DNA from: Clostridia bacterium
GTDB lineage: Bacteria; Bacillota; Clostridia; UMGS1883; UMGS1540
Direction: 5' to 3'
Assembly (NCBI GenBank): GCA_045531205.1
Contig: JAZSDN010000050.1
Location: forward strand, 6,407 to 70,406
DNA length: 64,000 bases
Each line of letters starts with the position of its first letter. Position 1 is the first letter of the stretch. The position numbers and the translations under genes are program-made. Below, in pieces: positions 40,263 to 52,997 of this stretch. The notes under the pieces were generated by a model. That model was not told the origin of the DNA and ran no database searches. It was given only the letters and a program-made list of their open reading frames with translations.

Positions 40263-41147
40263 TTAATAATTCATATATTTTTTCAACATATTCTTTTCAA
40301 AATTCAACAGATATTTTGCTTCTTCGTCAATTCTTTTTTCCGAAATGGAATCAATTAAATTGCGGTATACATGTATATCCCTGCCTACTTCTCCTCCTTC
40401 CATAACAAACGGTTCTGAGACTATTCTACCTCTATAGTTTATATCGGCAAGAGCTTTAAATATCTCGTCCCAATCAAGATGTCCTCTTCCAGGTGCTGTA
40501 CGATTATTTTCACCTGTATGAAAACTTGTAAGTTTATCTCCCACAAGTCTTATTGCATCACCTATATTATTTTCTTCAATATTCATATGATATGTGTCAA
40601 GAAGCACACCAATATTTGGGCTATCTATTTCTTCTGTATACATAAGAGCTTCTGCTGCAGTGTTAATAAGACAAGTTTCAAAACGGTTAACAGCTTCAAC
40701 ACAGTATGTAACTCCATTATCTTCGGCAGTTTTGATAATTTCTTTCATACTTTTAATGCTTTGTTCCCAATATGGACGTTTATCCCCCTGATAATTATCT
40801 GGAGTCCCCCATCCTGCATAGCTTACACCAGACAGTAATGTGCCATTCATAAACCCTATTCTTTCAACTATTCTTTTTAAATAATCAACTCCGCCAAGTC
40901 TTATTTTTTCATTCAGAGAGGATACATCATAATTTCTGTCAAGGCCAAGGCTGTATGTTAGTTCAATATTATATTCTTCGGCTAACTTAACTAAATCTTT
41001 CATGTGTTCTTTACTCATTTCAAGCAAAGGTTGTGCCTGAAATTCAAGAACATCAAACCCTATCTCGGATGCCTTTTTTATATATTTTTTATGGTCAGCA
41101 TCCCAGTTTTTCTCCCAAAAATTCATAAAAATACCAAACTTATTCAT
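40263..41147 (-). CDS. Ketose 3-epimerase (D-psicose/D-tagatose 3-epimerase family, xylose-isomerase-like TIM barrel)
   Basis: 294 aa. Strong resemblance to DPEase along the whole length: ...FEFQ/EIAA, VEAVNRFET-LINTA, LDTYHMNIEE, HTGENNR-PG-G. Confidence 0.75.
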   Translation of the reverse strand: MNKFGIFMNFWEKNWDADHKKYIKKASEIGFDVLEFQAQPLLEMSKEHMKDLVKLAEEYNIELTYSLGLDRNYDVSSLNEKIRLGGVDYLKRIVERIGFMNGTLLSGVSYAGWGTPDNYQGDKRPYWEQSIKSMKEIIKTAEDNGVTYCVEAVNRFETCLINTAAEALMYTEEIDSPNIGVLLDTYHMNIEENNIGDAIRLVGDKLTSFHTGENNRTAPGRGHLDWDEIFKALADINYRGRIVSEPFVMEGGEVGRDIHVYRNLIDSISEKRIDEEAKYLLNFEKNMLKKYMNY

Positions 41148-41163
41148 TTTATCTTACTCCTTA

Positions 41164-42564
41164 TTATAAAACATCTATATCGTATCCAAGATATTTCACA
41201 AGCGCTTCCTTCACACATTCTGACCATTCTCCTTTTGCAATGGCAACATGGTGTTTGTATCCGTTTTCGCACATATACTTAAATACATTTTTAAGATTAT
41301 CTTTTTCAAAAACAATACCTGTTCCAAAAAACTCTTTGTCAAACTTATCTTCTGTCAATGTGCCATTAGTTGTAAATCCATAAAGTTTTCCATTTTCGGT
41401 TTTAATGCTTGCAACTGTAACCTTTCCTGATTTTATTTTTCCGTTAAGAATTCCAACTCCGGTTCCTTCTCCGTAAGATTTTTTAAACATAAGATGTTCA
41501 TTTATAAAAGTATCATTTTCAAAGAATGAATTTGGAACTGCCGAGCAATGAAACATAATGACTTTATTTTCTTCATTTCCGTAATTATTGTTTACATCCA
41601 AAAGCATAACAGGATGATTTGAGGCTAAAGTTAACGCATACATCATAACAGCATTGTTAACATCAAGTTCACATGCGGCAGGTATTCCTTTTTCATTCAT
41701 ATCACTCAAAATAAGACAAGGTGCTATATTATACTGTGTAACAAATTCGTCCCAGCATCTTACTGCCATAGCATCAAGAGAATAGTCCTTAACCAATTTA
41801 TCTACTGCTACACCAAGCTTTGCAATATTTGTAAGCTTTTCTTCAGAATAACTTCCAAAAGATGTAACAGAAGAATAATATCTTTTTTTCTCATCTAATT
41901 CGGTTTTGTCAACTCTTTCCATTAAATCAAATATATACGATAAATCTATTGATTCAACATTTATATTTTTGTTTTGCAATGCCACTTCATCTGTACGTAC
42001 AGTTTTAAAAGCAGTTGTTCTAGCTCCTAACGTTCCAATGTTAACATTTCTCATTCCTTTAACAATTCTGCATATTGCAGCAAAGTTTTTTAAGTCTTTT
42101 GCAAAAGCTTCATCAAGAGGTGAAACTGCCATTTTTTCTGTTAAAGTGAATTTAATATTGCATTGACGCAAAAGATTACACATAGCAAATTTTCCGCACA
42201 CAGCATCTCTTCTTTGTGAAAAATCCATCTTCCCTATTTCGTCAGGATATGCTTGAACTAAAATTGGTACACTTACATTTTTAAATGCTTCTGCCGCACC
42301 ATTTTCATCCGAAAAGTTCGGCATACATAAAATTATACCGTCAAACCTTCCCTTGTTATTTTCTAAAAAATCTTTGAACAAACGTCCTTCTTCTCTTGTT
42401 TCTACCGCACCGTATCTTGTTAAATTTTTATCCATACAAATATAACTAAAACCATTATCGACTACAGCTTTTATCATTTCTTCTCTGGCTTTCGCTATAA
42501 CTTCTCCTGGAAAAAAACCTCTGTTTCCAAAAAATAATGCGAATGTAATTTCTATTTTCCTCAA
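41164..42564 (-). CDS. L-fucose/L-arabinose isomerase-family sugar isomerase
   Basis: 466 aa. Fold and size as in the FucI/AraA-like family. Upstream of the epimerase in the same operon. Confidence 0.5.
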   Translation of the reverse strand: MRKIEITFALFFGNRGFFPGEVIAKAREEMIKAVVDNGFSYICMDKNLTRYGAVETREEGRLFKDFLENNKGRFDGIILCMPNFSDENGAAEAFKNVSVPILVQAYPDEIGKMDFSQRRDAVCGKFAMCNLLRQCNIKFTLTEKMAVSPLDEAFAKDLKNFAAICRIVKGMRNVNIGTLGARTTAFKTVRTDEVALQNKNINVESIDLSYIFDLMERVDKTELDEKKRYYSSVTSFGSYSEEKLTNIAKLGVAVDKLVKDYSLDAMAVRCWDEFVTQYNIAPCLILSDMNEKGIPAACELDVNNAVMMYALTLASNHPVMLLDVNNNYGNEENKVIMFHCSAVPNSFFENDTFINEHLMFKKSYGEGTGVGILNGKIKSGKVTVASIKTENGKLYGFTTNGTLTEDKFDKEFFGTGIVFEKDNLKNVFKYMCENGYKHHVAIAKGEWSECVKEALVKYLGYDIDVL

Positions 42565-42707: not shown

Positions 42708-43565
42708 GTGATATATATGATCTATAGTTTTGATAAAATAAAACTGCATAATATGTTTAAAGATTTTTACACTCTTTTAAAAATAACAATAAGTATTTGG
42801 GACTCGGATTTTAATCAGTTACTTTTTTATCCAAATCCCATGCCTTCAATATGTGCAAAAATAAAATCGTCGCCAACAGGCAAACAAAAATGTCTGGAAT
42901 CTGATATAAACGCCTGCAAAAAAGCTGCTTTAATAAAAAAACCTTATACCTTTACATGTCATGCAGGTCTTGTTGATACTGCTTTTCCGATTTATTATAA
43001 CGACGAAATAATTGCCTACATTATGTTTGGACAACTGCGCGATGTAGAAAATAAATTATCTACCATAGAAAATGTAAAAATTTTATGTAAGAAATATGGT
43101 TTAGATGAAAAAAGTATAGATAAATATTATAATGATTTACCGTTGCTTAATCATAATCAAATAAATGCCATTATACATCTATTTGAAATGTGTATTCCTT
43201 ATTTTTACACAAGTGAAGCGATAAAATTTGAAGAAAATATGCTTGCTTCAGAAATAGATAACTATATATCGCAAAACCTTTCTTCCTCTTTATCTCTTGA
43301 ACAATTAACTAAAAAATTTATGATTTCGACAAACGAATTATATCAGATATCACACAAATTTTTTGGCACTTCAATAAAAGACTATATAATTCAAAAAAGA
43401 ATTATCAAAGCGAAACACTATCTTGCAACAACTAATTTACCTGTTTCTGAAATAAGTATTAAAATTGGATATAATGATTACAACTATTTTATCCGCACCT
43501 TTAAAAATCGAACAGGGTACACTCCGCTTTCATACAGAAAAAATTTTCCGCTTAACACTTTGTAA
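42708..43565 (+). CDS. AraC-family transcriptional regulator with N-terminal PocR sensory domain
   Basis: 285 aa. PocR-like N-terminus (…TFTCHAGLVDTAFPIYYNDEIIAYIMFGQ) plus a C-terminal AraC HTH. Divergent from the isomerase/epimerase operon. Confidence 0.8.
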   Translation: MIYMIYSFDKIKLHNMFKDFYTLLKITISIWDSDFNQLLFYPNPMPSICAKIKSSPTGKQKCLESDINACKKAALIKKPYTFTCHAGLVDTAFPIYYNDEIIAYIMFGQLRDVENKLSTIENVKILCKKYGLDEKSIDKYYNDLPLLNHNQINAIIHLFEMCIPYFYTSEAIKFEENMLASEIDNYISQNLSSSLSLEQLTKKFMISTNELYQISHKFFGTSIKDYIIQKRIIKAKHYLATTNLPVSEISIKIGYNDYNYFIRTFKNRTGYTPLSYRKNFPLNTL

Positions 43566-43664
43566 AACATATAAAAACTCACCTATATTTTGTAGGTGAG
43601 TTTTTAATCTTTATACATAATAACATTTTATCTTACTTTTCTATATATGTAATAAGACAACAGG

Positions 43665-44573
43665 TTAAACAAAATAGCAGCTTATATTGCATTTTTCATT
43701 AAGTATTGAACAGATTTTTTTCATTTCGCCATCTGTTTGTGAGCTGTCTGCGAATTTCGTGTATTCTTTTCCTGCAATCTTATATTTTGACTCAGCAAGA
43801 TTGTTGTATTTTAATAATTCAATCTCTTTTATTCCTTTTCCGAAGGTTTTTATGATTTCAGCAAAGGCATAAATATCATCATCAGAATCATTCACTCCGG
43901 GTATTACAGGAATTCGTAAAATGATATTACTGTGTTTGTTTGATAATTTAGTGATATTTTCGATTATCAGTCTGTTGTCCTGCCCTGTAAATTTGCGATG
44001 TTTTTCGGAATTTGGAATTTTCAAATCAGCAAAGAACAAGTCTACAAAGGGTAACACCTCTTCAACCTTTTCCCAAGGAACGAAAAAAGCACTTTCAATT
44101 GCTGTGTGAATCCCATGTTCTTTACACATTCTTGTAACTTCTGCCACAAAGTCTGAATACAACAAACACTCTCCGCCCGAAAAGGTTACTCCTCCGCCTG
44201 AGGAAATATAATAGTGAGCGTCTTTTTTAATTTCTTCAAAAAGTTCCGGAGCAGTCTTTTCCTCACCACACAGGCTAAGTGCAAGCGAAGGACAGCTTAC
44301 CGCGCATTTGCCGCAAGCTGCGCAACCTTCGCGCAGAAAAGCCATATCATTTCCCAGTATTTTATGATGTTGTGGACAAAGCTCAATACATTTACCGCAA
44401 TGAATACATTTTGTAGGTATGTAAAGAATTTGCTTTTTTGAAGACAATGTTTCCGGATTATGACACCATTTGCATCTAAGGGCGCATCCTTTGAAATATA
44501 CAACTGTTCTGACGCCCGGTCCATCATGCAAAGAACCTCTTGATATATTTGTAATTGTTGCACTTACAGACAT
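43665..44573 (-). CDS. Glycyl-radical enzyme activating protein (radical SAM, PflA family, with extra ferredoxin-like Cys clusters)
   Basis: 302 aa: ...GPGVRTVVYFKGCALRCKWCHNPE (CxxxCxxC). Additional CxxCxxC clusters. 10-nt overlap with the upstream GRE gene. Confidence 0.85.
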   Translation of the reverse strand: MSVSATITNISRGSLHDGPGVRTVVYFKGCALRCKWCHNPETLSSKKQILYIPTKCIHCGKCIELCPQHHKILGNDMAFLREGCAACGKCAVSCPSLALSLCGEEKTAPELFEEIKKDAHYYISSGGGVTFSGGECLLYSDFVAEVTRMCKEHGIHTAIESAFFVPWEKVEEVLPFVDLFFADLKIPNSEKHRKFTGQDNRLIIENITKLSNKHSNIILRIPVIPGVNDSDDDIYAFAEIIKTFGKGIKEIELLKYNNLAESKYKIAGKEYTKFADSSQTDGEMKKICSILNEKCNISCYFV

Positions 44574-47200
44574 GAATGCTTTGTCCTTCCGATAATATGA
44601 TTCTGAAGTTCAGGAGAAAGCAGGTTAAATTTTTGACTGAATCCAGAAACTCTTACTGCAAGGTTATTATATTTTTCCGGATATTTTTGTGCATCAATAA
44701 GAGTGTCTGCATCAATGGTATTAAACTGTACATTTTCCAGACCTTTTTCGCTGCTTGCAATTAAAATATCCGCAAGCATGGGTATATTTTTGTCAGTAAA
44801 CAATTTTGGATCAACTTCAACAATTGCCGAAGTTGTACCCGGAGTGCGTTTGGTTGGCAGTTTAGCAATTGAGTTAAGCAAAGCTGTTAAGCCGTTAAAA
44901 TCACGTCCCTGCATTGGAGAAACACTATAAGCTATAATTTCGCCTTTGCGTCTTCCGTCAGGAGTTGCGGCACTTTCTCGTCCGTAGTCAACCATCCAAA
45001 GGAATGTAAATGGTTGTGCATGGAATGAAAGTCCGTATTTTTCAGACAATTCTTCAAGATAATCGCAAGCAGTATTTACTATATCAACCGCAATTGAGTC
45101 TACACTTTCAATATCATTACCAAATTTTGCAGCTTTATTTATAAATTCAAGCCTTATACTTTCATCCGGAAAATTGTTAACTAATATATCTTTTAATTCT
45201 TCAAGTGTATATTTTTGTTGTATGTACACAAATTCACGAATAACCTCAAGTGAGTCGGCAAGGTTTGGTATTCCGCCAAGCATAATTTGGTAATAATCAT
45301 ACTTCGCTCCTGCATCATTAAAGTCTTTTCCTGTTTCAATACAACCGTCTGTCAGTAACGACTTGTAAGGTCTTGGGCTGTTGATAACAGAACAATCCCT
45401 GTGTTTTTTTACAGAAGAACAGGTCAAATCAAGAATATGATAAATTTGTTTTTTGACCGAATCATAAAACTTGTTATAGGTGTCAAACGAATTAAGCTCA
45501 CCGGTTTTTACACCTGTGTTAAAATCAGGATACATCATACTGCTGCCGTTACATAGCACATACTCAACTGCTTTAAGCAAATTGGTTTCTCCTGTTACGG
45601 CATGAGGATTGGATTTTCCCGGTATAACAGTTTCAACACATCCAATTTGAGTGTAGTCGCAGGCATCCTCATAAGATATTCCTTTGCTTGTAAGTGCAGG
45701 AATCATTACATCATCATTAAAGAAGAACGGAACACCTTTCTGGACATGACCTACCACCTCAAGGGCACGTTTTATAAATTCCTTTTCCGTATTTTTTGAG
45801 TAACGCACTGACATGCAACGTATAAAATCAAGCTGTTCGGTAGCATCGAGCATCATATAAGAAAGTTCATTGACCTGACTGCTTCCATCGGGAGAAGTCC
45901 CGCCGACACACGACTGCTGAACATCGTAATTTAAGTATAGTTTAATCCACAAGCAGCATATCAGTTCAAAAGCATCTTCTTTTGTCAAAATGCCTTTTTC
46001 AATATCCGCTTTGTAATATGGATAAAGTATCTGATCAAGTCTGCCGAGTGAATTTGCGTTTATATGGTCCTCCCATGTGTTGATGATATGCGCAAACCAT
46101 AAAGACTGTACTGCTTCTCTGAAGTTTGAAGCAGGATTTTCGGGAACATTTTCACACGCACTTATAATATAATCCAAATCCTTTTCAAGATAAAGTTCGT
46201 CACCAGATTCTTTAATTCTTTGAGCTTCTTTTGCATATTTTTTGCCCATTTCACAAGCTGCTACGCAAATACTTTTCATTGAAGAATAAAGCGGATTTGT
46301 TCCGTTTTTCTTTTCGTGCGCTATAACTTCGTCAAGCAGGCCTTTAAACCCAAGCTTCAATACTTTTTCATAGTTTATTACACTGTGATTAGAGTCGGTA
46401 CATCTTCCTATTGCAGCCCATTCTCCGCACGAATCCTGCTCGTCTTTTGTAAGAATCGGCGATACATATTCAAGAAAATTAGGCTCTTGTTTAGTCAGCT
46501 CAAAGTATTTTTCCAAATCGCTATCACTGATACCATTTAATTTGGCTAACCTGCGATTTTCTTCCGTGTCATCAGGTGAAAACCATTCATCGTATTTAGA
46601 GTCAGGAAAATTAAAACCAACAATTAGTTCTCCAGGAATAATTACAGGAGTAAATTTATCTAAAACATTAATAGCTCTTGCCGCGCTGATTTCTGTATTC
46701 GAAAGATTCTTTTTTGCTGCTTCAGCCATCCCAATATAAGAGTAAACTTTATTTTGCATACAATAATAATCTTCATAGTCGTTTGTGCCAACAACTAAGC
46801 GACGCAAAGCTTCACATCTGTCAGTCAGAGAATACATAGTAATTCTTTTCCTTTCATAATAAAATTGAGTTTCTTTTGCTTGCTTTTTATATTCTCTGGG
46901 CAAGCAACCGAATTCTGCCAAAAAGGCTTTGTTGAACCCGCCTAACGTTTCATATCCATAAGCTATTGCTACATCGGTTATTTTTTTGCCAGAGATTATA
47001 TCAATTGCAGCCAATTGGAGACGGTAATGTCGAACATATTTTACAAAAGACTTTCCGGTATATTTATGAAATTTCGAGCAAAAATGCCATTTAGAATACC
47101 CAAACTGATTTGCAACATCTGATAGGTCTAAACGCTTCTCGATATTATTATGAATATACTTTAAAACTTCATACACAACACCATCTCCTTTCATTTTCAT
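44564..47200 (-). CDS. Fusion protein: N-terminal AraC/SoxS-type HTH domain (about 105 aa) + PFL-like glycyl radical enzyme of the single-Cys dehydratase/lyase type
   Basis: 878-aa continuous ORF. Residues about 9-105 form a complete two-helix-turn-helix AraC domain. From about residue 122 a GRE begins, with Cys loop TQIGCVETV and C-terminal glycyl motif AVRVSGFSQKF. An internal SD (AAAGGAAAAG) lies 8 nt before the in-frame ATG at 46835-46837. Confidence 0.8.
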   Translation of the reverse strand: MKMKGDGVVYEVLKYIHNNIEKRLDLSDVANQFGYSKWHFCSKFHKYTGKSFVKYVRHYRLQLAAIDIISGKKITDVAIAYGYETLGGFNKAFLAEFGCLPREYKKQAKETQFYYERKRITMYSLTDRCEALRRLVVGTNDYEDYYCMQNKVYSYIGMAEAAKKNLSNTEISAARAINVLDKFTPVIIPGELIVGFNFPDSKYDEWFSPDDTEENRRLAKLNGISDSDLEKYFELTKQEPNFLEYVSPILTKDEQDSCGEWAAIGRCTDSNHSVINYEKVLKLGFKGLLDEVIAHEKKNGTNPLYSSMKSICVAACEMGKKYAKEAQRIKESGDELYLEKDLDYIISACENVPENPASNFREAVQSLWFAHIINTWEDHINANSLGRLDQILYPYYKADIEKGILTKEDAFELICCLWIKLYLNYDVQQSCVGGTSPDGSSQVNELSYMMLDATEQLDFIRCMSVRYSKNTEKEFIKRALEVVGHVQKGVPFFFNDDVMIPALTSKGISYEDACDYTQIGCVETVIPGKSNPHAVTGETNLLKAVEYVLCNGSSMMYPDFNTGVKTGELNSFDTYNKFYDSVKKQIYHILDLTCSSVKKHRDCSVINSPRPYKSLLTDGCIETGKDFNDAGAKYDYYQIMLGGIPNLADSLEVIREFVYIQQKYTLEELKDILVNNFPDESIRLEFINKAAKFGNDIESVDSIAVDIVNTACDYLEELSEKYGLSFHAQPFTFLWMVDYGRESAATPDGRRKGEIIAYSVSPMQGRDFNGLTALLNSIAKLPTKRTPGTTSAIVEVDPKLFTDKNIPMLADILIASSEKGLENVQFNTIDADTLIDAQKYPEKYNNLAVRVSGFSQKFNLLSPELQNHIIGRTKHSCL

Positions 47201-47258
47201 TATAGCAAAACCTAAATAATATTTCTACTCCAAAATTGTGTTTTTCAAAATGTTAAAA

Positions 47259-47286
47259 ATGCTCGCCTGAAACAACAGACGAGCAT
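47259..47286 (-). terminator. Terminator hairpin retained with the spoIVB-like gene fragment
   Basis: ATGCTCG(47259-47265)-loop-CGAGCAT(47280-47286), flanked by A/T runs. It parallels the hairpin at 51081-51109 with compensatory stem changes. Confidence 0.5.
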
Positions 47287-47445
47287 TCATCTTAATTTTT
47301 CTCTGATTCTGCTAACATATTTTCAATAAATATTCCATACCCACGCGTGGGATCGTTTACGAATACGTGAGTGACTGCACCGATGAGCTTGCTATTTTGG
47401 ACAATGGGGCTGCCCGATAGGTGTGATGTCAATATGGGACAACAA
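47287..47445 (-). pseudogene. Remnant of the 3' end of a spoIVB-like S55 peptidase gene (duplication scar)
   Basis: Minus-strand translation gives ...[42 protein letters not shown]. Compare ...[43 protein letters not shown] at the C-terminus of the intact gene 51115..52086. DNA identity is about 75-80 % over about 150 bp. There is no start codon, and the fragment is truncated where activase 2 ends. Confidence 0.65.
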
Positions 47446-47448
47446 ATT

Positions 47449-48282
47449 CTACGCTTTTTTAACTAATATATTTGTTTTTGCTCTGATATAATTAATTATT
47501 TCATTAATCTGTTCATCAGTTTGCATTGAAATTTCAAGCGGTTGTTTTCCTAATGCCAAGTACTTATTTTCGCCAAAAGCGTGATAAGGCTCTATTTCAA
47601 TCCCTATGATTGATGTAAGTGTATTTGCAAGTTCGCATATTTTGTCATAGTTTTCTTTTCTGTCATTATAGCCGGGAATTACAGGACAACGGAGAATAAT
47701 ATCTTTTTTTAACTCATTTAATAAATATAAGTTTTTCTTTATTAAAATATTGTCCACTCCTGTATAGGTCTTATGTAATTCAGGATTACTTTCCTTGAAA
47801 TCAAACAAAAACAAATCGGTGTATTCTGCAATTTGTTTTATTTTATCGCTATCGGCAAAGCCACAGGTTTCTATAGCAGTGTGCAGGTCATTTTCTTTAG
47901 CTTTTTTTAAAATGTCCAATGCAAACTCAAACTGAAACAACGGCTCACCACCCGAAAGTGTAATTCCGCCACCGGAATTTTTATAAAATTCATAGTCTTT
48001 CATAACTTCGTCAATAACATAATCTGACAATACTGTTTTTCCGCAGATTTCCTTCGCATTATTAAAACATATAAAATCCGAATTGTCAGCTGTTAAGTTT
48101 CGACATCTTCCACAGCCCGAACATTTATCCGGATAAAACATGATTTGTTTTTCTTGCGTCTGACTTTCAGGATTATGACACCATTCACAACGCAAAGGAC
48201 AGCCTTTGAAAAAAACAGTTGTGCGTATTCCCGGACCATCATTAACACAAAATTTTTGAATGTTAAATATTTCACCGGTCAT
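47449..48282 (-). CDS. Glycyl-radical enzyme activating protein 2 (radical SAM)
   Basis: 277 aa: ...[25 protein letters not shown]. Paralog of 43665..44573. Confidence 0.85.
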
Positions 48283-48284
48283 TT

Positions 48285-50234
48285 TTATTTCTCCTGCACT
48301 GCTCGTTCAATTACAGCGTCCTGAATTTTTTCATTCAATGTTGTAAACTGTGTACTGTAACCACTGATTTTAACAATAATATCCGTGTGTTCTGACGGAT
48401 TTTGTTTGGCTTCTTCTAACAATTTTGCATCTATAGTATTAACAGCAAGATGAAAACCGCCGGCTTCAAAAAATGTCTTTATTAGAGGTGTAAGTACACT
48501 GCTTTTTTCAATATCTTTTTTATTCAAACTTATCATAACAGGGCATCCGTTGGGAAAATATTTGGCAGAGATATTTGCGCATGACATCAGAGTTGATGTT
48601 AAGGTGCTTTTGTGAGGCGTTGCGCAAGGCATCACTCCGTAGGATAACAGTTCTCCTTTTTTTCTTCCGTTAACCATTCCGCTACAATCCCGCTGCCATA
48701 TATCCGCAGTAAAACGAAACAGTGCCGGCGAAGAAAGAACATTATCATCTATAGGATATTTTTGAATTACTTTTCCTATAAACTCGGTTATATCTTTAGC
48801 TAACTGATTACTTTCTTCGCTGTTGGAACCGTAATAAGTTTTTAAGCCTGCTATTTTATTATATAAAGATACATCCTCAAAATCTTTTTCTGCCTGCATC
48901 CTTAGATTTTTAATTGTTGTATGATTTTCGTCAAATACAAGCCTTTTTATAGTGTAAATACTGTCAATTAAAATGCCGATTCCCAAGATATTTATGCCAA
49001 ACAGGTATTTTTCCCGGTTTAATACACAGTTTGCAAATGGTGATACTGCGTTTCTATCTTGATTTGCAATACTCTTAAATTCAGGAAGTAAAGAGTTTGC
49101 ATAATAAAATTCAAAATAATTTTTGTATGCATTAAGAAAGTCTTTGAAAGAAGAATAATCAGACTTTTGCTCCAAAAACTCTTTGAAGGAATCATATAGG
49201 TTAACGGCTGCGGCAACTGTGTTTGAAAACGAGCCTTGGGGAGCTGGTTCGTAACAGCCAACAATTCCGTAATCCATTGCTCTCTTATCATCAATTCCCA
49301 ATTTTTTTAAACCTTCAATAATAGTATCATCATTGAAATATGCCGGCATACCGCTTCCGTTTAAAACCAGCCGAGTTGCTTTATTTAAAACATCGGTACT
49401 TGTTATTTTTGATACTCTCAGGGCAATGGATGGCTGGCGCATACTGATTTGTGTTTGAGCTTCAATAAATAACGATGTCAATTCATTTTCAATATCTCCA
49501 CCCACGGTCAGCATGCACGACTCATCACCCTCGGAATTTTTTATGTAAAAGCACATAATAAGTTCTAACGCTTCTTCCGGCGTAAGAATACCTTTTTCGA
49601 TATCATTTTTATAATATGGATACAGGTATGAATCTGCTCTGCCTAAAGATATTGCAGCGCCGCCCGCTTCTGTATATAAAAAGCATTGAATAAACCATAC
49701 AAGCTGTAACGCCTGACGAAAACTCACAGGAGGGTTTTCCGATATGAATTCACAGTCATTTGCGATGTTTAAAAGTCTTTCTTTATCTTCATTCTGCGAT
49801 AAAACATAAGCTTTTCTTGCAGTGTCAGCATAATTTTTTATGTAATTTGAAAAAGCCTTTAACGTATTTACCAAAGCTGTTTTATTAGAGTTTTTATTGA
49901 CTTCATTTATTTTCCCTTTAATTCCTTTTTCCAAGAAATCCTGAAAATCTGCAATGAAGTGCCCTCTATTCTGAGGTTTTACAGTTTCGCCAAGAGACCT
50001 TTGCCATTGCCAATGCCAGTTTGTTCCTACAATGTATTCCTTTTCATAAATTTCGGTTGAAAAGTTTTCTGAAAAATACTGATAGAAACCACTGTATAAA
50101 AGCCCTTTATCTTCTTCAACGTTTTTGTTTGAAATATATTGCTGATAAAGATTACATAAATGCTTTTTGTGTTGCTCTCTTTTTTCTTCAAACATAGCAA
50201 GGTGCTGTTTTTTTAAAAAAATTGTGTTATTCAT
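48285..50234 (-). CDS. Short PFL-like glycyl radical enzyme 2 (paralog of GRE1) with atypical glycyl motif
   Basis: Start refined to the ATG at 50232-50234 (GGAAAGGAG SD upstream; ATGAATAA overlap with the IclR stop). 649 aa. Cys loop GIVGCYEPAP. C-terminal IVKISGYSTQF replaces the usual RVSG(Y/F). The block LYPYYKNDIEKGILTPEEALELI matches LYPYYKADIEKGILTKEDAFELI in GRE1. Confidence 0.75.
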   Translation of the reverse strand: MNNTIFLKKQHLAMFEEKREQHKKHLCNLYQQYISNKNVEEDKGLLYSGFYQYFSENFSTEIYEKEYIVGTNWHWQWQRSLGETVKPQNRGHFIADFQDFLEKGIKGKINEVNKNSNKTALVNTLKAFSNYIKNYADTARKAYVLSQNEDKERLLNIANDCEFISENPPVSFRQALQLVWFIQCFLYTEAGGAAISLGRADSYLYPYYKNDIEKGILTPEEALELIMCFYIKNSEGDESCMLTVGGDIENELTSLFIEAQTQISMRQPSIALRVSKITSTDVLNKATRLVLNGSGMPAYFNDDTIIEGLKKLGIDDKRAMDYGIVGCYEPAPQGSFSNTVAAAVNLYDSFKEFLEQKSDYSSFKDFLNAYKNYFEFYYANSLLPEFKSIANQDRNAVSPFANCVLNREKYLFGINILGIGILIDSIYTIKRLVFDENHTTIKNLRMQAEKDFEDVSLYNKIAGLKTYYGSNSEESNQLAKDITEFIGKVIQKYPIDDNVLSSPALFRFTADIWQRDCSGMVNGRKKGELLSYGVMPCATPHKSTLTSTLMSCANISAKYFPNGCPVMISLNKKDIEKSSVLTPLIKTFFEAGGFHLAVNTIDAKLLEEAKQNPSEHTDIIVKISGYSTQFTTLNEKIQDAVIERAVQEK

Positions 50235-51018
50235 AAATAACAAACTCCTTTCCACAATACCCTAAATTTGCCGAGATTTCAGCGGAAGCATTTCTTATTA
50301 GATCAAGTTTTTCATTAATTAAAGAGTCAATATCGTCATATAGCGTCAGGCTTGAAACACCTATAGTTGCCACCACATTTCCTGTATAGTCAAAAATAGG
50401 TACTGCAATACAAATTATGCCTTTGGCAAACTCTTCATTATCAATAGCAAAACCTGCTTTTTTTATCTTATAAGCTTCAATAATAAAACTATCAAAATCC
50501 GTAATGGTATTTTCTGTTCTTTTGTCAACCGGTATATTAAAGTAATTCTTTATCTCATCTGTATCTGAATAACTTAAAAGAATCTTACCGGGGGCAGAAC
50601 AGTTAAGTGGGTATTCTCCACCTATACACCCATTAATTCTGACTTCCTTTGTGGAATCATAATGCAAAAGATAAAGGACGTTTCTTTCGTTTTTAACCCC
50701 AAGATAGACAGAATCACCAAGCTCATTATTTAACTGTTCTATGTAAGGAGTTGCAATTTTTGCAATGCTGTTATTATTAACATAACCTGATATAAGTGAA
50801 AAGGGACGGAGCGTTAATCTGTATTTTTTTTGAGTATTATCACTCATATAAATCCAATTTTTCTCGAGCAAAGCTTCCAACACCCTTGAAACAGCATTTT
50901 TATTTATATTAAGAGCATTACTTATATCAGCAATTCCTATTTCAGAATTTTTACTTGCAAAAAATTCAATTATTTCCAAAGCGTAATCTACAGCAGGAGC
51001 TTTAGACAACTTTATCAC
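50227..51018 (-). CDS. IclR-family transcriptional regulator
   Basis: About 260 aa. N-terminal HTH (VDYALEIIEFFASKNSEIGIADISNALNINKNAVSRVLEAL) plus a C-terminal IclR ligand-binding domain. GTG/TTG start near 51007-51018. Translationally coupled to GRE2. Confidence 0.8.
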   Translation of the reverse strand: MIKLSKAPAVDYALEIIEFFASKNSEIGIADISNALNINKNAVSRVLEALLEKNWIYMSDNTQKKYRLTLRPFSLISGYVNNNSIAKIATPYIEQLNNELGDSVYLGVKNERNVLYLLHYDSTKEVRINGCIGGEYPLNCSAPGKILLSYSDTDEIKNYFNIPVDKRTENTITDFDSFIIEAYKIKKAGFAIDNEEFAKGIICIAVPIFDYTGNVVATIGVSSLTLYDDIDSLINEKLDLIRNASAEISANLGYCGKEFVIYE

Positions 51019-51080
51019 CTCATAATATATTTATTCTACAATTATAAGTATATCACGTAAAGATATATATGTCAACAAAA

Positions 51081-51109
51081 ATGCTCACTTATATAAAACA
51101 AGTGAGCAT
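51081..51109 (-). terminator. Rho-independent terminator of the spoIVB-like gene
   Basis: ATGCTCACTT(51081-51090)-loop-AAGTGAGCAT(51100-51109) with flanking A/T runs. Confidence 0.55.
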
Positions 51110-51114
51110 TTATC

Positions 51115-52086
51115 TTATTTGTTTTTCTCTGCTTCAGTTAACATATTCTCTATAAATATCCCATAACCTCTTGTTGGATCATTCACAAATACGTGTGTCA
51201 CAGCTCCGATGAGCTTTCCGTTCTGAACTAAAGGTGACCCCGACATACCTTGGACAATTCCACCCGTTATCGAAAGAAGTTTTGGGTCTGTAACTTTTAT
51301 TATCATATTTTTATTTTCTTCATAATTTTTATTTAAAATCTTTTCAATTAAAACTGTATATTTTTGTACACCTTCTCCTAAAACATCCGCATATATAAAA
51401 GCATTTCCTTCCTTCACTTCGTCTGATGTTGAAGTAAAAACAGTTTCTCCTTCACTTTTTTTAAGCAGTGTTCCGAATAATCCGCTTTTTGAATTTTTGT
51501 TTATTATGCCACTTTTAACATTTAAAAAATCCCCTTGCAAACCACCGGGGCTCCCCTCTTTCCCTCTTATTACATACATATTTTCACAAAAACGTATATC
51601 GCCCGAATTTCCTGAAGGCATTATGCCTGTTTCTGTATCTTCTACCTTGTGCCCTAACGCAGCAAATTTTAAGGTTTCGGGTTCGATATAAGTTATAGTT
51701 CCTATCCCGGCTATACTGTCTCTTACCCATGCGCCTATTTTATATTTATAAGCATCGTCATAAAATACAGGTGTAACCTTTTTGGTTAAAATTTTATTTT
51801 CTCTCTTTATTCCTAAATTAAGATTTTTTCCTTCTGACTGTTCAACAAGCTTGCTGAATTCATCACTCTTTGATATCTTTTTGCCGTTTACTAAATAAAT
51901 TATATCTCCCTTTTTAATTCCTGATGCCTTGGCAGGAGATATATTTTTTCCATTTGAAACTATATCAGAAAATCCAACCACCAATACACCTTCAAAATAC
52001 ATGGATATTCCTATGGTGTTTCCTCCTAATATTACTTGTTTTGGTTCGCTCTCTTCTGTTGCTTCAATATTGTTTTGGCCGCACAA
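51115..52086 (-). CDS. SpoIVB-like serine peptidase (S55 family, PDZ domain + peptidase)
   Basis: PDZ-like region (GIKKGDIIYLVNGKKISKSDEF) and the S55 catalytic region ...[26 protein letters not shown]. The reading frame stays open upstream to about 52156, encoding a signal-peptide-like KKSVNLLKIFFALLLTVTLLSLLCGQ with no in-frame ATG. The true start is probably non-canonical or hidden by a sequencing artefact. Confidence 0.75.
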   Translation of the reverse strand: MCGQNNIEATEESEPKQVILGGNTIGISMYFEGVLVVGFSDIVSNGKNISPAKASGIKKGDIIYLVNGKKISKSDEFSKLVEQSEGKNLNLGIKRENKILTKKVTPVFYDDAYKYKIGAWVRDSIAGIGTITYIEPETLKFAALGHKVEDTETGIMPSGNSGDIRFCENMYVIRGKEGSPGGLQGDFLNVKSGIINKNSKSGLFGTLLKKSEGETVFTSTSDEVKEGNAFIYADVLGEGVQKYTVLIEKILNKNYEENKNMIIKVTDPKLLSITGGIVQGMSGSPLVQNGKLIGAVTHVFVNDPTRGYGIFIENMLTEAEKNK

Positions 52087-52217
52087 AAGAGAAAGCAGGG
52101 TTACTGTCAGTAAAAGTGCAAAAAATATTTTTAATAAATTAACACTTTTTTTTGCAATATAAAACCACCCCCCTTAATTTAATTTTTACAGAGAGCGGTT
52201 TTTATATTCATTGCAAT

Positions 52218-52997
52218 TTATCGGTATTCTGTTAAAGATTTAAATGTATAGCCTTGGCTTTTTGCATCTTTTATTACTCTGTCAAGAGCTTTTGCGTTAT
52301 CGGCAGATACTGCGTGAAGCAATATAACTGCACCATTATGTAAGCCTTTCATTATGTTATTATATGCTGCTTCCTCTCCTATTGGATTTTCTGCTTCCCA
52401 GTCTTTGTATGCAAAGCTCCAGAAACAACTTATAAAGCCCATTTCGTTTGCCTTTTTTAAAACTTTTTCGTTGTACTCTCCCATTGGAGGACGGAAAAAT
52501 TTCATTTTACTGCCAAGTTCATTTTCAAATTTTTCCGAAAGAGTCAAAATTTCTTTTTCCATTTCTTCTTCCGAAATTTTTGGCATTGAAGGATGATTCC
52601 ACGTATGATTTCCTACAATATGACCTTCATCATGCATTCTTGCTACCAAATCAAAGCTGCGAGTAAAATAATCTCCTGTAATAAAAAATGCTGCCGTAAC
52701 CTCATTTTCTTTTAGTGTGTCCAGAATATCGTCTGTGTATCCGTTTTCGTAACCTTCGTCGAATGTAAGATATAAAGTTTTTTCTTCCTTATTTCCCATG
52801 TAAATGCAATTATTTTTTGTCATCATTTCTGTTTGAGATGCTGTAAATTCAGGTCCTTCCTCTGTTGGTCTGAATCCCCAACCAAAAACATCTGTTTGAT
52901 AAGATATTTCCTTTGAGGTTTCTGTTACATTATCTGTGCACGATGTAAAAAGTAAAACACTTAAAAGTAAAATAAATATTTTTTTAATAATCTCCAC
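52218..52997 (-). CDS. Polysaccharide deacetylase (NodB-homology) lipoprotein, PdaB/PdaA-like
   Basis: 259 aa. Lipobox LFTSC. NodB motifs TFDEGY, HTWNHP, and LHAVS near the C-terminus. Confidence 0.8.
   Translation of the reverse strand: MEIIKKIFILLLSVLLFTSCTDNVTETSKEISYQTDVFGWGFRPTEEGPEFTASQTEMMTKNNCIYMGNKEEKTLYLTFDEGYENGYTDDILDTLKENEVTAAFFITGDYFTRSFDLVARMHDEGHIVGNHTWNHPSMPKISEEEMEKEILTLSEKFENELGSKMKFFRPPMGEYNEKVLKKANEMGFISCFWSFAYKDWEAENPIGEEAAYNNIMKGLHNGAVILLHAVSADNAKALDRVIKDAKSQGYTFKSLTEYR

Follow-up and report, generated by a model that had tools for sequence, protein, structure and literature searches.

A compact glycyl radical enzyme in a predicted IclR-linked operon of uncultured gut Clostridia

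The stretch analysed here, called the window, is 64,000 nucleotides of DNA from a Clostridia bacterium (assembly GCA_045531205.1, contig JAZSDN010000050.1, positions 6,407 to 70,406 of the forward strand); coordinates below are those of the window unless a related locus is named. It holds a cassette of three minus-strand genes: an IclR-family regulator, a glycyl radical enzyme (GRE) that we call GRE2, and its radical S-adenosylmethionine (SAM) activating enzyme, the activase AE2. GRE2 is a streamlined PFL-like GRE that belongs to a conserved, uncharacterized clade of uncultured gut Clostridia. The cassette is a variant within the well-known GRE superfamily, and is neither a new kind of system nor a degenerate gene. 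The whole is probably best explained as a self-contained operon of about 3.8 kb, iclR-gre-ae, set between two terminators.

The iclR-gre-ae cassette and its predicted control

The regulator gene (50227..51009) encodes 260 aa from a TTG start. Its open reading frame (ORF) stays open back to a GTG at 51018, and the TTG at 51009 is the likely true start. A GAGGTGA Shine-Dalgarno sequence stands 5 nt upstream of this TTG, orthologues are likewise 260 aa long, and the exact 260-aa product is present in a public protein collection. GRE2 (48285..50234, within an ORF of 48285..50255) is 649 aa from its ATG and identical to a public protein, P0001, which bears out an earlier note on this DNA that had described the enzyme as unusually short at about 650 aa. 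AE2 (47449..48282) is 277 aa, with its CX3CX2C motif at C28, C32 and C35.

The genes are tightly packed. The junction of iclR and GRE2 (50227..50253) reads ...GGAAAGGAG TTTGTTATTT ATGAATAA, in which the Shine-Dalgarno sequence GGAAAGGAG (50253-50245) lies within the 3′ end of iclR and is followed, in a GGAAAGGAG-N10-ATGAATAA spacing, by the start/stop overlap ATGAATAA (50234-50227). The overlap is 8 nt long, with the GRE2 ATG at 50234-50232 and the IclR TAA at 50229-50227, just as the earlier note had described it. Among related loci (given here by L numbers, and homologous proteins by P numbers) the overlap is also 8 nt in L001, L009, L012 and L013, and is 4 nt in L021. The AE2 ATG, with a CAGGAG Shine-Dalgarno sequence ahead of it, comes just 2 nt after the GRE2 stop.

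Terminators bound the unit on both sides. The upstream limit is the intrinsic terminator of spoIVB (51079..51111, minus strand), whose 14-bp hairpin precedes a U-run (dG -17.8 kcal/mol, z -6.3). The downstream end is a second intrinsic terminator (47257..47288, minus strand), a 13-bp hairpin with a U-run (dG -20.1 kcal/mol, z -6.1) that lies upstream of the promoter of the neighboring GRE gene, GRE1. No internal terminator with a T-tract was found inside the cassette; the terminator-like matches within GRE2 (48400-48381 and 49715-49700) are weak 5-6-bp stems that lack a T-run. A scan of 43000-52500 against Rfam at E<=0.1 gave no match.

A predicted sigma-70-type promoter (51047..51075, minus strand) lies just after the spoIVB terminator and is the best site in 43500-51300. 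It consists of TTGACA, a 17-nt spacer and TG-n-TATACT, with 11 of 12 consensus matches and an extended -10 TG, and orthologous loci have the same layout. The earlier proposal of an operon in which the regulator is co-transcribed and coupled with GRE2 and AE2 is thus supported at the level of sequence, by one strong promoter, by the 8-nt and 2-nt junctions and by the flanking terminators. It is supported further because both the overlap and the IclR linkage are kept in relatives. IclR adjoins the GRE in 11 loci (L001, L004, L009, L012, L013, L015, L021, L022, L023, L028 and L036), with GREs that range from 71% down to 32% identity to GRE2 and cover both subclades of the compact clade described below.

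Directly after the -10 box is a direct repeat, TATAAT-N13-TATTAT (51022..51046, minus strand), which we predict to be an IclR operator. The pattern TATWAY-N13-YAYWAY occurs 9 times in 1.27 Mb (the window and 55 loci, both strands), and 8 of these occurrences lie just upstream of a cassette iclR, in the window and in 7 locus records. One record, L003, duplicates L001, which leaves 6 independent relatives with the operator-like motif. IclR most likely uses this element as its operator, and the placement of the site over the start of transcription suggests an autorepression that an effector relieves. The regulator itself has the N-terminal helix-turn-helix (HTH) and C-terminal effector domain of the IclR family (PF09339 HTH_IclR, E 4e-7; PF01614 IclR_C, E 5e-38; both above cut-offs). 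It scores below every NCBIfam equivalog cut-off, with its best matches being PcaR/KdgR-like, and our literature search found nothing relevant that pairs IclR with glycyl radical enzymes.

These features suggest a simple scheme of control. One sigma-70-type promoter would drive iclR, gre and ae. The IclR protein most likely binds the TATAAY-N13-TAYWAY repeat abutting the -10 box and would repress its own operon, and a small-molecule effector, probably the GRE2 substrate or a close precursor, would release this repression. The 8-nt overlap would couple GRE2 translation to IclR termination, with AE2 following after 2 nt.

GRE2 and its compact clade

The earlier note had proposed a profile hidden Markov model scan for the two GRE domains, and both are found. 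GRE2 matches Pfam PFL-like (PF02901) at E 5e-76 (257 bits; cut-off 24.3), over only profile positions 151-640 of 647, and Gly_radical (PF01228) at E 8e-14 (52.5 bits; cut-off 22.2). AE2, 2 nt downstream, supplies the adjacent radical-SAM activase expected of the GRE superfamily. A PFL-like match that begins only at profile position 151 might mean that the ORF has been shortened artificially, through an assembly error, a misplaced start codon or a frameshift, the last of which the earlier note had raised. We give this practically no chance. Homologues align with GRE2 from residue 1 to 645-649, with 100% coverage and the same N-terminus, and the identical 649-aa protein was called independently in public data. 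Upstream of the GRE2 start the DNA encodes IclR in a different frame, and the gaps that account for the difference in length are in-frame and scattered over the whole protein.

The short length is instead shared by a clade. A search of 5.8 billion clusters yielded 99 GRE2 homologues, about 55 of which are clusters of 640-680 aa; these align from residue 1 over 92-100% of GRE2 and are 37-78% identical to it. Both Pfam domains are present in all of them, and where they are named at all they are called "hypothetical protein" or "formate C-acetyltransferase". The clade is a small one: of 4684 family matches among 1.84 billion 50%-identity representatives, only about 35 belong to it. In species-representative genomes, searched with a 30-sequence alignment, GRE2 relatives occur only in metagenome-assembled genomes (MAGs), those of uncultured Clostridia of human, yak, sheep, goat, buffalo and rabbit guts and of Ructibacterium sp. 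More distant relatives with a GCYE loop occur in Lentisphaerota, Armatimonadota and Verrucomicrobiota.

GRE2 falls about 140 aa short of the characterized PFL-like GREs. In an alignment with GRE1 and with GREs of about 790 aa, the missing residues are distributed over several sites. The largest gap, about 75 residues, lies ahead of the barrel, between IVGTN(72) and N-x-G-H(92). Further gaps follow residue 112 (15 residues), residue 236 (15, which GRE1 lacks too) and residue 356 (17), and one of 6 residues precedes residue 248. A 13-residue gap at residue 405 is confined to an inner group (GRE2 and P0006 among the proteins compared); the remaining compact enzymes in the alignment, P0022 (59% identical) and P0041 among them, keep this segment. 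The deletions after 72, 112, 236, 356 and 405 fall between predicted secondary-structure elements.

An AlphaFold2 model of GRE2, built from a 68-sequence alignment, has a mean pLDDT of 94.4 and a pTM of 0.93, with no residue below 50. Model strands occur at 194, 241, 269, 298 and 322, followed by the Cys loop, and at 406, 499, 565, 595 and 620, followed by the Gly loop. The top Foldseek matches in the PDB are 5i2g (propanediol dehydratase), 1r8w (glycerol dehydratase), CutC, HypD and YbiW/PflD, with TM(query) of 0.84-0.87 and TM(target) of about 0.70, the targets being longer. This contrast is what would be expected of a complete core minus peripheral elements. To judge from the model, the barrel appears to be retained along with the Cys loop and the glycyl radical domain, and the roughly 140 residues that GRE2 has lost are peripheral.

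The second unusual feature of GRE2 is its glycyl loop, K622-I623-S624-G625-Y626 (48357..48371, minus strand), in which G625 is invariant. The earlier note had read this K-I-S-G-Y as a replacement for R-V-S-G-(Y/F), and the reading is correct. Against the published GRE fingerprint, RVxG[FWY]x6-8[FL]x4Qx2[IV]x2R (PMC13450708), GRE1 passes and GRE2, which reads KISGYSTQFTTLNEKIQDAVIER, fails. The departure is confined to the first two positions (RV to KI), and the rest of the pattern, x6-8[FL]x4Qx2[IV]x2R, is kept. Lys stands at the Arg position in 42 of the 99 homologues. All clade members with at least 41% identity read [VI]-K-[IL]-S-G-[YFHL]-S; for the sister subclade of compact enzymes, 32-40% identical, the reading is V/I-R-I-S-G-[YFL]-S. 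The Ile thus characterizes the entire compact clade, and the Lys, a conservative change, is fixed in one of its subclades.

Two further observations concern this loop. In the Lys-loop subclade, the otherwise widely conserved motif A-T-P-D-G-R (GRE2 residues 518-527, about 48654-48683) is replaced by G-[TM]-[VIL]-N-G-R-K-K; P0043 is an exception in having a K-type loop yet keeping PDGR. A distant homologue of 805 aa, P0084, reads V-R-V-A-T-Y-S, reported as Ala at the radical position, and so resembles the aminoacyl radical enzymes (PMC11528403).

Could GRE2 nonetheless be a degenerating or partly inactivated paralogue, as the earlier note suggested, with both its length and its K-I-S-G-Y loop being signs of decay? 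In favor of decay, GRE2 departs from the RVxG fingerprint in two places, lacks about 140 aa relative to characterized PFL-like GREs and falls below all curated subfamily cut-offs, and the orthologous activase in L001 is fragmented. However, the same length and motif recur in dozens of clusters, down to 41% identity. The ratio of nonsynonymous to synonymous substitution rates (dN/dS) is 0.10-0.12 between GRE2 and its L001 and L009 orthologues, a mark of purifying selection. G625, C327, R524 and eight further positions never vary in the 68-sequence alignment, and conservation of H92 and E329 reaches at least 90%. The model shows a full fold with high confidence, and the window has the intact genes of a dedicated activase and a regulator. 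Length and motif are traits of a clade; by the standard that the earlier note itself set, its reading is refuted, and we judge decay very improbable.

Catalytic residues, proposed chemistry and the activase

The Cys loop of GRE2 is G326-C327-Y328-E329-P330 (49245..49259, minus strand), the GCYEP recognized by the earlier note. C327 is invariant and E329 at least 90% conserved among 68 sequences, and the tetrapeptide GCYE is fixed in the compact clade. A CXE motif is found in all GRE 1,2-eliminases and isomerases, where it hydrogen-bonds and deprotonates the substrate hydroxyl (PMC13450708), and GRE2 has it as C327-Y328-E329. His92 (codon 49959..49961, minus strand), in an N-x-G-H motif, is invariant in one alignment (A3) and at least 90% conserved in another (A1), and it aligns with the His of GRE1 and of other full-length GREs. 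It appears to correspond to glycerol dehydratase His164, which has been proposed as the acid protonating the departing hydroxyl (PMC13450708; the role of Glu435 in that enzyme is from the same source). This equivalence comes from offset arithmetic (a HMMER offset of 87 to 1r8w, minus a 15-residue gap), the direct HMMER alignment of GRE2 to glycerol dehydratase having stopped short of the His164 region.

Our best guess from these residues is that GRE2 carries out chemistry of the dehydratase/eliminase type, or of the isomerase type, on a substrate other than that of glycerol dehydratase. AE2 would abstract hydrogen from Gly625 in the K-I-S-G-Y loop, and the resulting glycyl radical would generate a thiyl radical at Cys327. 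Glu329, as base, and His92, as acid, would then act on a hydroxylated substrate, leading to 1,2-elimination or isomerisation.

AE2 scores 300 bits, in two stretches, on the TIGR02494 GRE-activase model, against a cut-off of 174. It has the Pfam Radical_SAM domain, and its DGPGIR peptide-binding motif is unchanged. The ferredoxin-like insert is reduced (48043..48123, minus strand). In an alignment with 10 activases it reads C54-x2-C57-x2-C60 ... C72 ... C80 and shows a 22-aa deletion relative to standard activases, which L004 and L010 share. AE2 keeps the first CxxCxxC and C72, which aligns with the last Cys of the second motif; C80 is non-conserved. The fourth Cys of the first motif is substituted, and the CxxCxxC of the second is lost. 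AE2 thus does not have the eight cysteines in two CxxCxxCxxxC motifs that occur in L015, L021, L023, L024 and L008. In ferredoxins of the clostridial 2x[4Fe-4S] type, the ligands of one cluster are Cys I-III of the first motif and Cys IV of the second. By this classical rule AE2 is predicted to retain exactly one auxiliary-cluster ligand set, and it would carry one radical-SAM [4Fe-4S] cluster and one auxiliary cluster. Most GRE activases have eight such cysteines, in a domain whose function is unexplained (PMC13450708), and our literature search found no description of a single-auxiliary-cluster activase architecture.

The K-I-S-G-Y loop and the trimmed AE2 might have co-evolved as a private recognition pair that insulates GRE2 from AE1, and GRE1 from AE2, where one genome has several GRE systems, and the earlier note had likewise suggested altered activase recognition. 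The sequence of the Gly loop influences activase specificity (PMC13450708), the two activases of the window are only 36% identical, and in the inner group (the window, L004 and L010) a K-type loop goes together with the 22-aa deletion in the activase. However, the K-type GRE of L015 has a full-size, two-motif activase. In the operons of L004 and L001 one trimmed activase also accompanies a second GRE, which is of R-L-Y-G-F type (beside the K-I-S-G-F enzyme) in L004 and of R-I-G-G-Y type in L001. The DGPGIR motif of AE2 is unchanged, and Lys for Arg is a conservative replacement. The loop substitution stands, but altered recognition is weakened as its explanation, and we consider a private pair unlikely. 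Strict co-variation of the Lys loop with a trimmed activase was rejected on the case of L015 and on that of P0043, which is K-type but keeps PDGR.

Other compact GREs stand beside the GRE2-like gene in L001 (11968-14010), L004 (12080-14095), L010, L016, L028 and L036, and such tandem compact GREs apparently share one activase. The neighbors include a type V-R-I-G-G-Y-S, with a Cys loop that lacks Glu, and a type V-R-L-Y-G-F-S, with a CC Cys loop. L008 (1-10013) has five GRE genes in a row and then one activase.

The six tandem loci raise the question of whether GRE2 normally partners a second compact GRE and is an orphan here, with reduced or no function. This seems improbable, somewhat more so than a private pair. 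The neighboring GREs are of two or more unrelated types, with 22-28% identity between them, which leaves no single conserved partner. L012, L015 and L021 have a single GRE, as the window does, and in L015 and L021 there is also an activase. The junction of GRE2 and AE2 is clean and contains no remnant, and no characterized GRE is known to need a second full-length catalytic subunit (PMC13450708).

Several observations weigh against our preferred reading, a functional and self-contained operon for an eliminase-type GRE. First, GRE2 lies far below all NCBIfam GRE cut-offs: it reaches 252 bits against 678 on TIGR01774 (PFL2), and on the best characterized equivalog (of the GD, CutC, HypD, HpsG/HpfG and PflD set) 215 bits against 1000. 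Because all of these cut-offs are missed, no function can be transferred to GRE2. Second, the diol-binding GHS of glycerol dehydratase is GAA at GRE2 residues 192-194, and the Asp447 region is deleted. Third, more distant members of the clade stand alone, without activase or IclR. Fourth, no transporter or downstream enzyme is conserved beside the cassette in the at least 20 related loci inspected; only IclR, the activase and sometimes another GRE are conserved there, so the context gives no clue to the substrate. Finally, the orthologous activase of the close relative L001 (13997-14584) is split into 67 and 121 aa, with about residues 42-130 deleted. It is either a pseudogene or an assembly error, and another activase lies 3 kb downstream.

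Origin of the cassette and relation to known systems

Downstream of the cassette lies a second GRE with its own activase, GRE1 (44564..47200) and AE1 (43665..44573), both ORFs on the minus strand. The earlier note had taken the two enzymes for duplicates that sub-functionalised for different inducers. This is contradicted by their low identity: GRE1 and GRE2 are 27% identical, AE1 and AE2 are 36% identical, and the two GREs belong to different GRE clades. The cassette is instead an insertion between repeats of the spoIVB 3′ end, and tandem duplication was rejected on account of these repeats and the 27% identity.

The remnant of spoIVB (47292..47417, minus strand) lies directly downstream of AE2 and consists of 41 codons, in frame, plus a stop. 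Together with its terminator (47255-47417) it is a direct repeat of 51115-51250 on the minus strand. The two copies have 75% nt identity, and 37 of 41 aa are identical; dN is 0.09 and dS is saturated. Because dN is low while dS is saturated, the copies diverged as functional genes in separate lineages before they were joined. This is the trace that a single-crossover (Campbell-type) or homology-facilitated integration of foreign DNA at the spoIVB 3′ end would leave, and it points to such an event. The same repeat pair flanks the cassette in L001 (8986-9158 and 14613-14744) and in L002.

Between the window and L001, a MAG locus, identity is 91-100% over 51200-50350, which covers the terminator, the promoter and most of iclR, against 60-79% across the GRE (dS 1.8) and about 84% in the 3′ half of the activase; the dS of IclR is 0.20. 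This mosaic indicates a recent exchange of the regulator segment between lineages, with a breakpoint near the 3′ end of iclR.

GRE1 has its own peculiarities. Its residues 16-107 form an N-terminal AraC-type HTH (PF12833/PF00165) fused to a full-length GRE, an unusual arrangement that is also present in a Ructibacterium MAG (L014, 78% identical), in P0065 and in P0083. The best promoter-like site for GRE1 (47199-47227) has a -10 TATAAT that overlaps the annotated ATG at 47200, and the real start may be an in-frame GTG at codon 9, which is preceded by AAAGGAG (47176-47200). Three genes lie beyond AE1. A PocR-sensor/AraC regulator gene (42708-43565) is on the plus strand; on the minus strand are an L-fucose-isomerase-like gene (41164-42564) and a xylose-isomerase-like TIM-barrel gene (40263-41147). 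This neighborhood hints at a role for GRE1 in deoxy-sugar or diol metabolism.

What could GRE2 and its cassette offer? Whole GRE clades remain without experimental validation (2026 GRE review), and the cassette is valuable chiefly for the discovery of function and as a naturally minimal GRE/activase pair. At about 650 aa, GRE2 is a naturally minimised GRE scaffold, some 140 aa below any characterized PFL-like member. K-I is a tolerated departure from the fingerprint, so strict RVxG motif searches would miss the clade. The single auxiliary-cluster ligand set predicted for AE2 is a natural experiment on the role of those clusters, and the linked IclR with its candidate operator gives a handle for finding the substrate by screening ligands of the regulator. 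The cassette is otherwise ordinary biology, a regulated catabolic operon in uncultured gut Clostridia.

A bolder reading joins these features: the K-I-S-G clade would be a new functional class of GRE with a minimal scaffold and a one-auxiliary-cluster activase, carried by a portable module. Taken as a whole we find this possible but rather doubtful. If it were true, GRE2 would act on a metabolite new to GRE chemistry, and the co-transcribed IclR would sense this metabolite. The enzyme would have shed most of the region ahead of the barrel, which supplies the dimer interface in canonical GREs, and may then be monomeric or differently assembled. A single auxiliary [4Fe-4S] cluster would suffice for installing the glycyl radical. 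The three genes would be a portable module inserted by a single crossover at the spoIVB 3′ end, with a regulator segment that was recently exchanged.

Among characterized enzymes, B12-independent glycerol dehydratase (1r8w/1r9d) and 1,2-propanediol dehydratase (5i2g), GRE 1,2-eliminases that cleave C-O bonds, are the best match to GRE2 in sequence (E 1.8e-57, 22-23% identical) and in structure (TM 0.84-0.85). GRE2 has in common with them the CXE motif, a His that probably corresponds to His164, the glycyl domain and an adjacent TIGR02494-type activase. In contrast, it is about 140 aa shorter, has K-I and not R-V, and does not keep the diol-binding residues. It is also found without a microcompartment or dha/pdu context and with an apparently co-transcribed IclR. 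Choline TMA-lyase CutC, hydroxyproline dehydratase HypD and the isomerases YbiW/PflD share the fold (TM 0.83-0.87), the CXE motif and an origin in gut anaerobes with GRE2. However, their equivalog models give GRE2 only 188-215 bits against cut-offs of 1000-1100, and GRE2 lacks their N-terminal elaborations.

The regulator has the same HTH_IclR and IclR_C architecture, in about 260 aa, as the one-component regulators PcaR/PcaU, KdgR and AllR. Unlike these, it is encoded by the first gene of its presumed target operon and is not divergently transcribed. Finally, AE2 shares CX3CX2C, DGPGIR and TIGR02494 membership with GRE activases. PFL-AE has no ferredoxin insert, and CutD, GD-AE and HPAD-AE have an eight-Cys insert for two auxiliary clusters; AE2, with one predicted auxiliary cluster, is intermediate between them.

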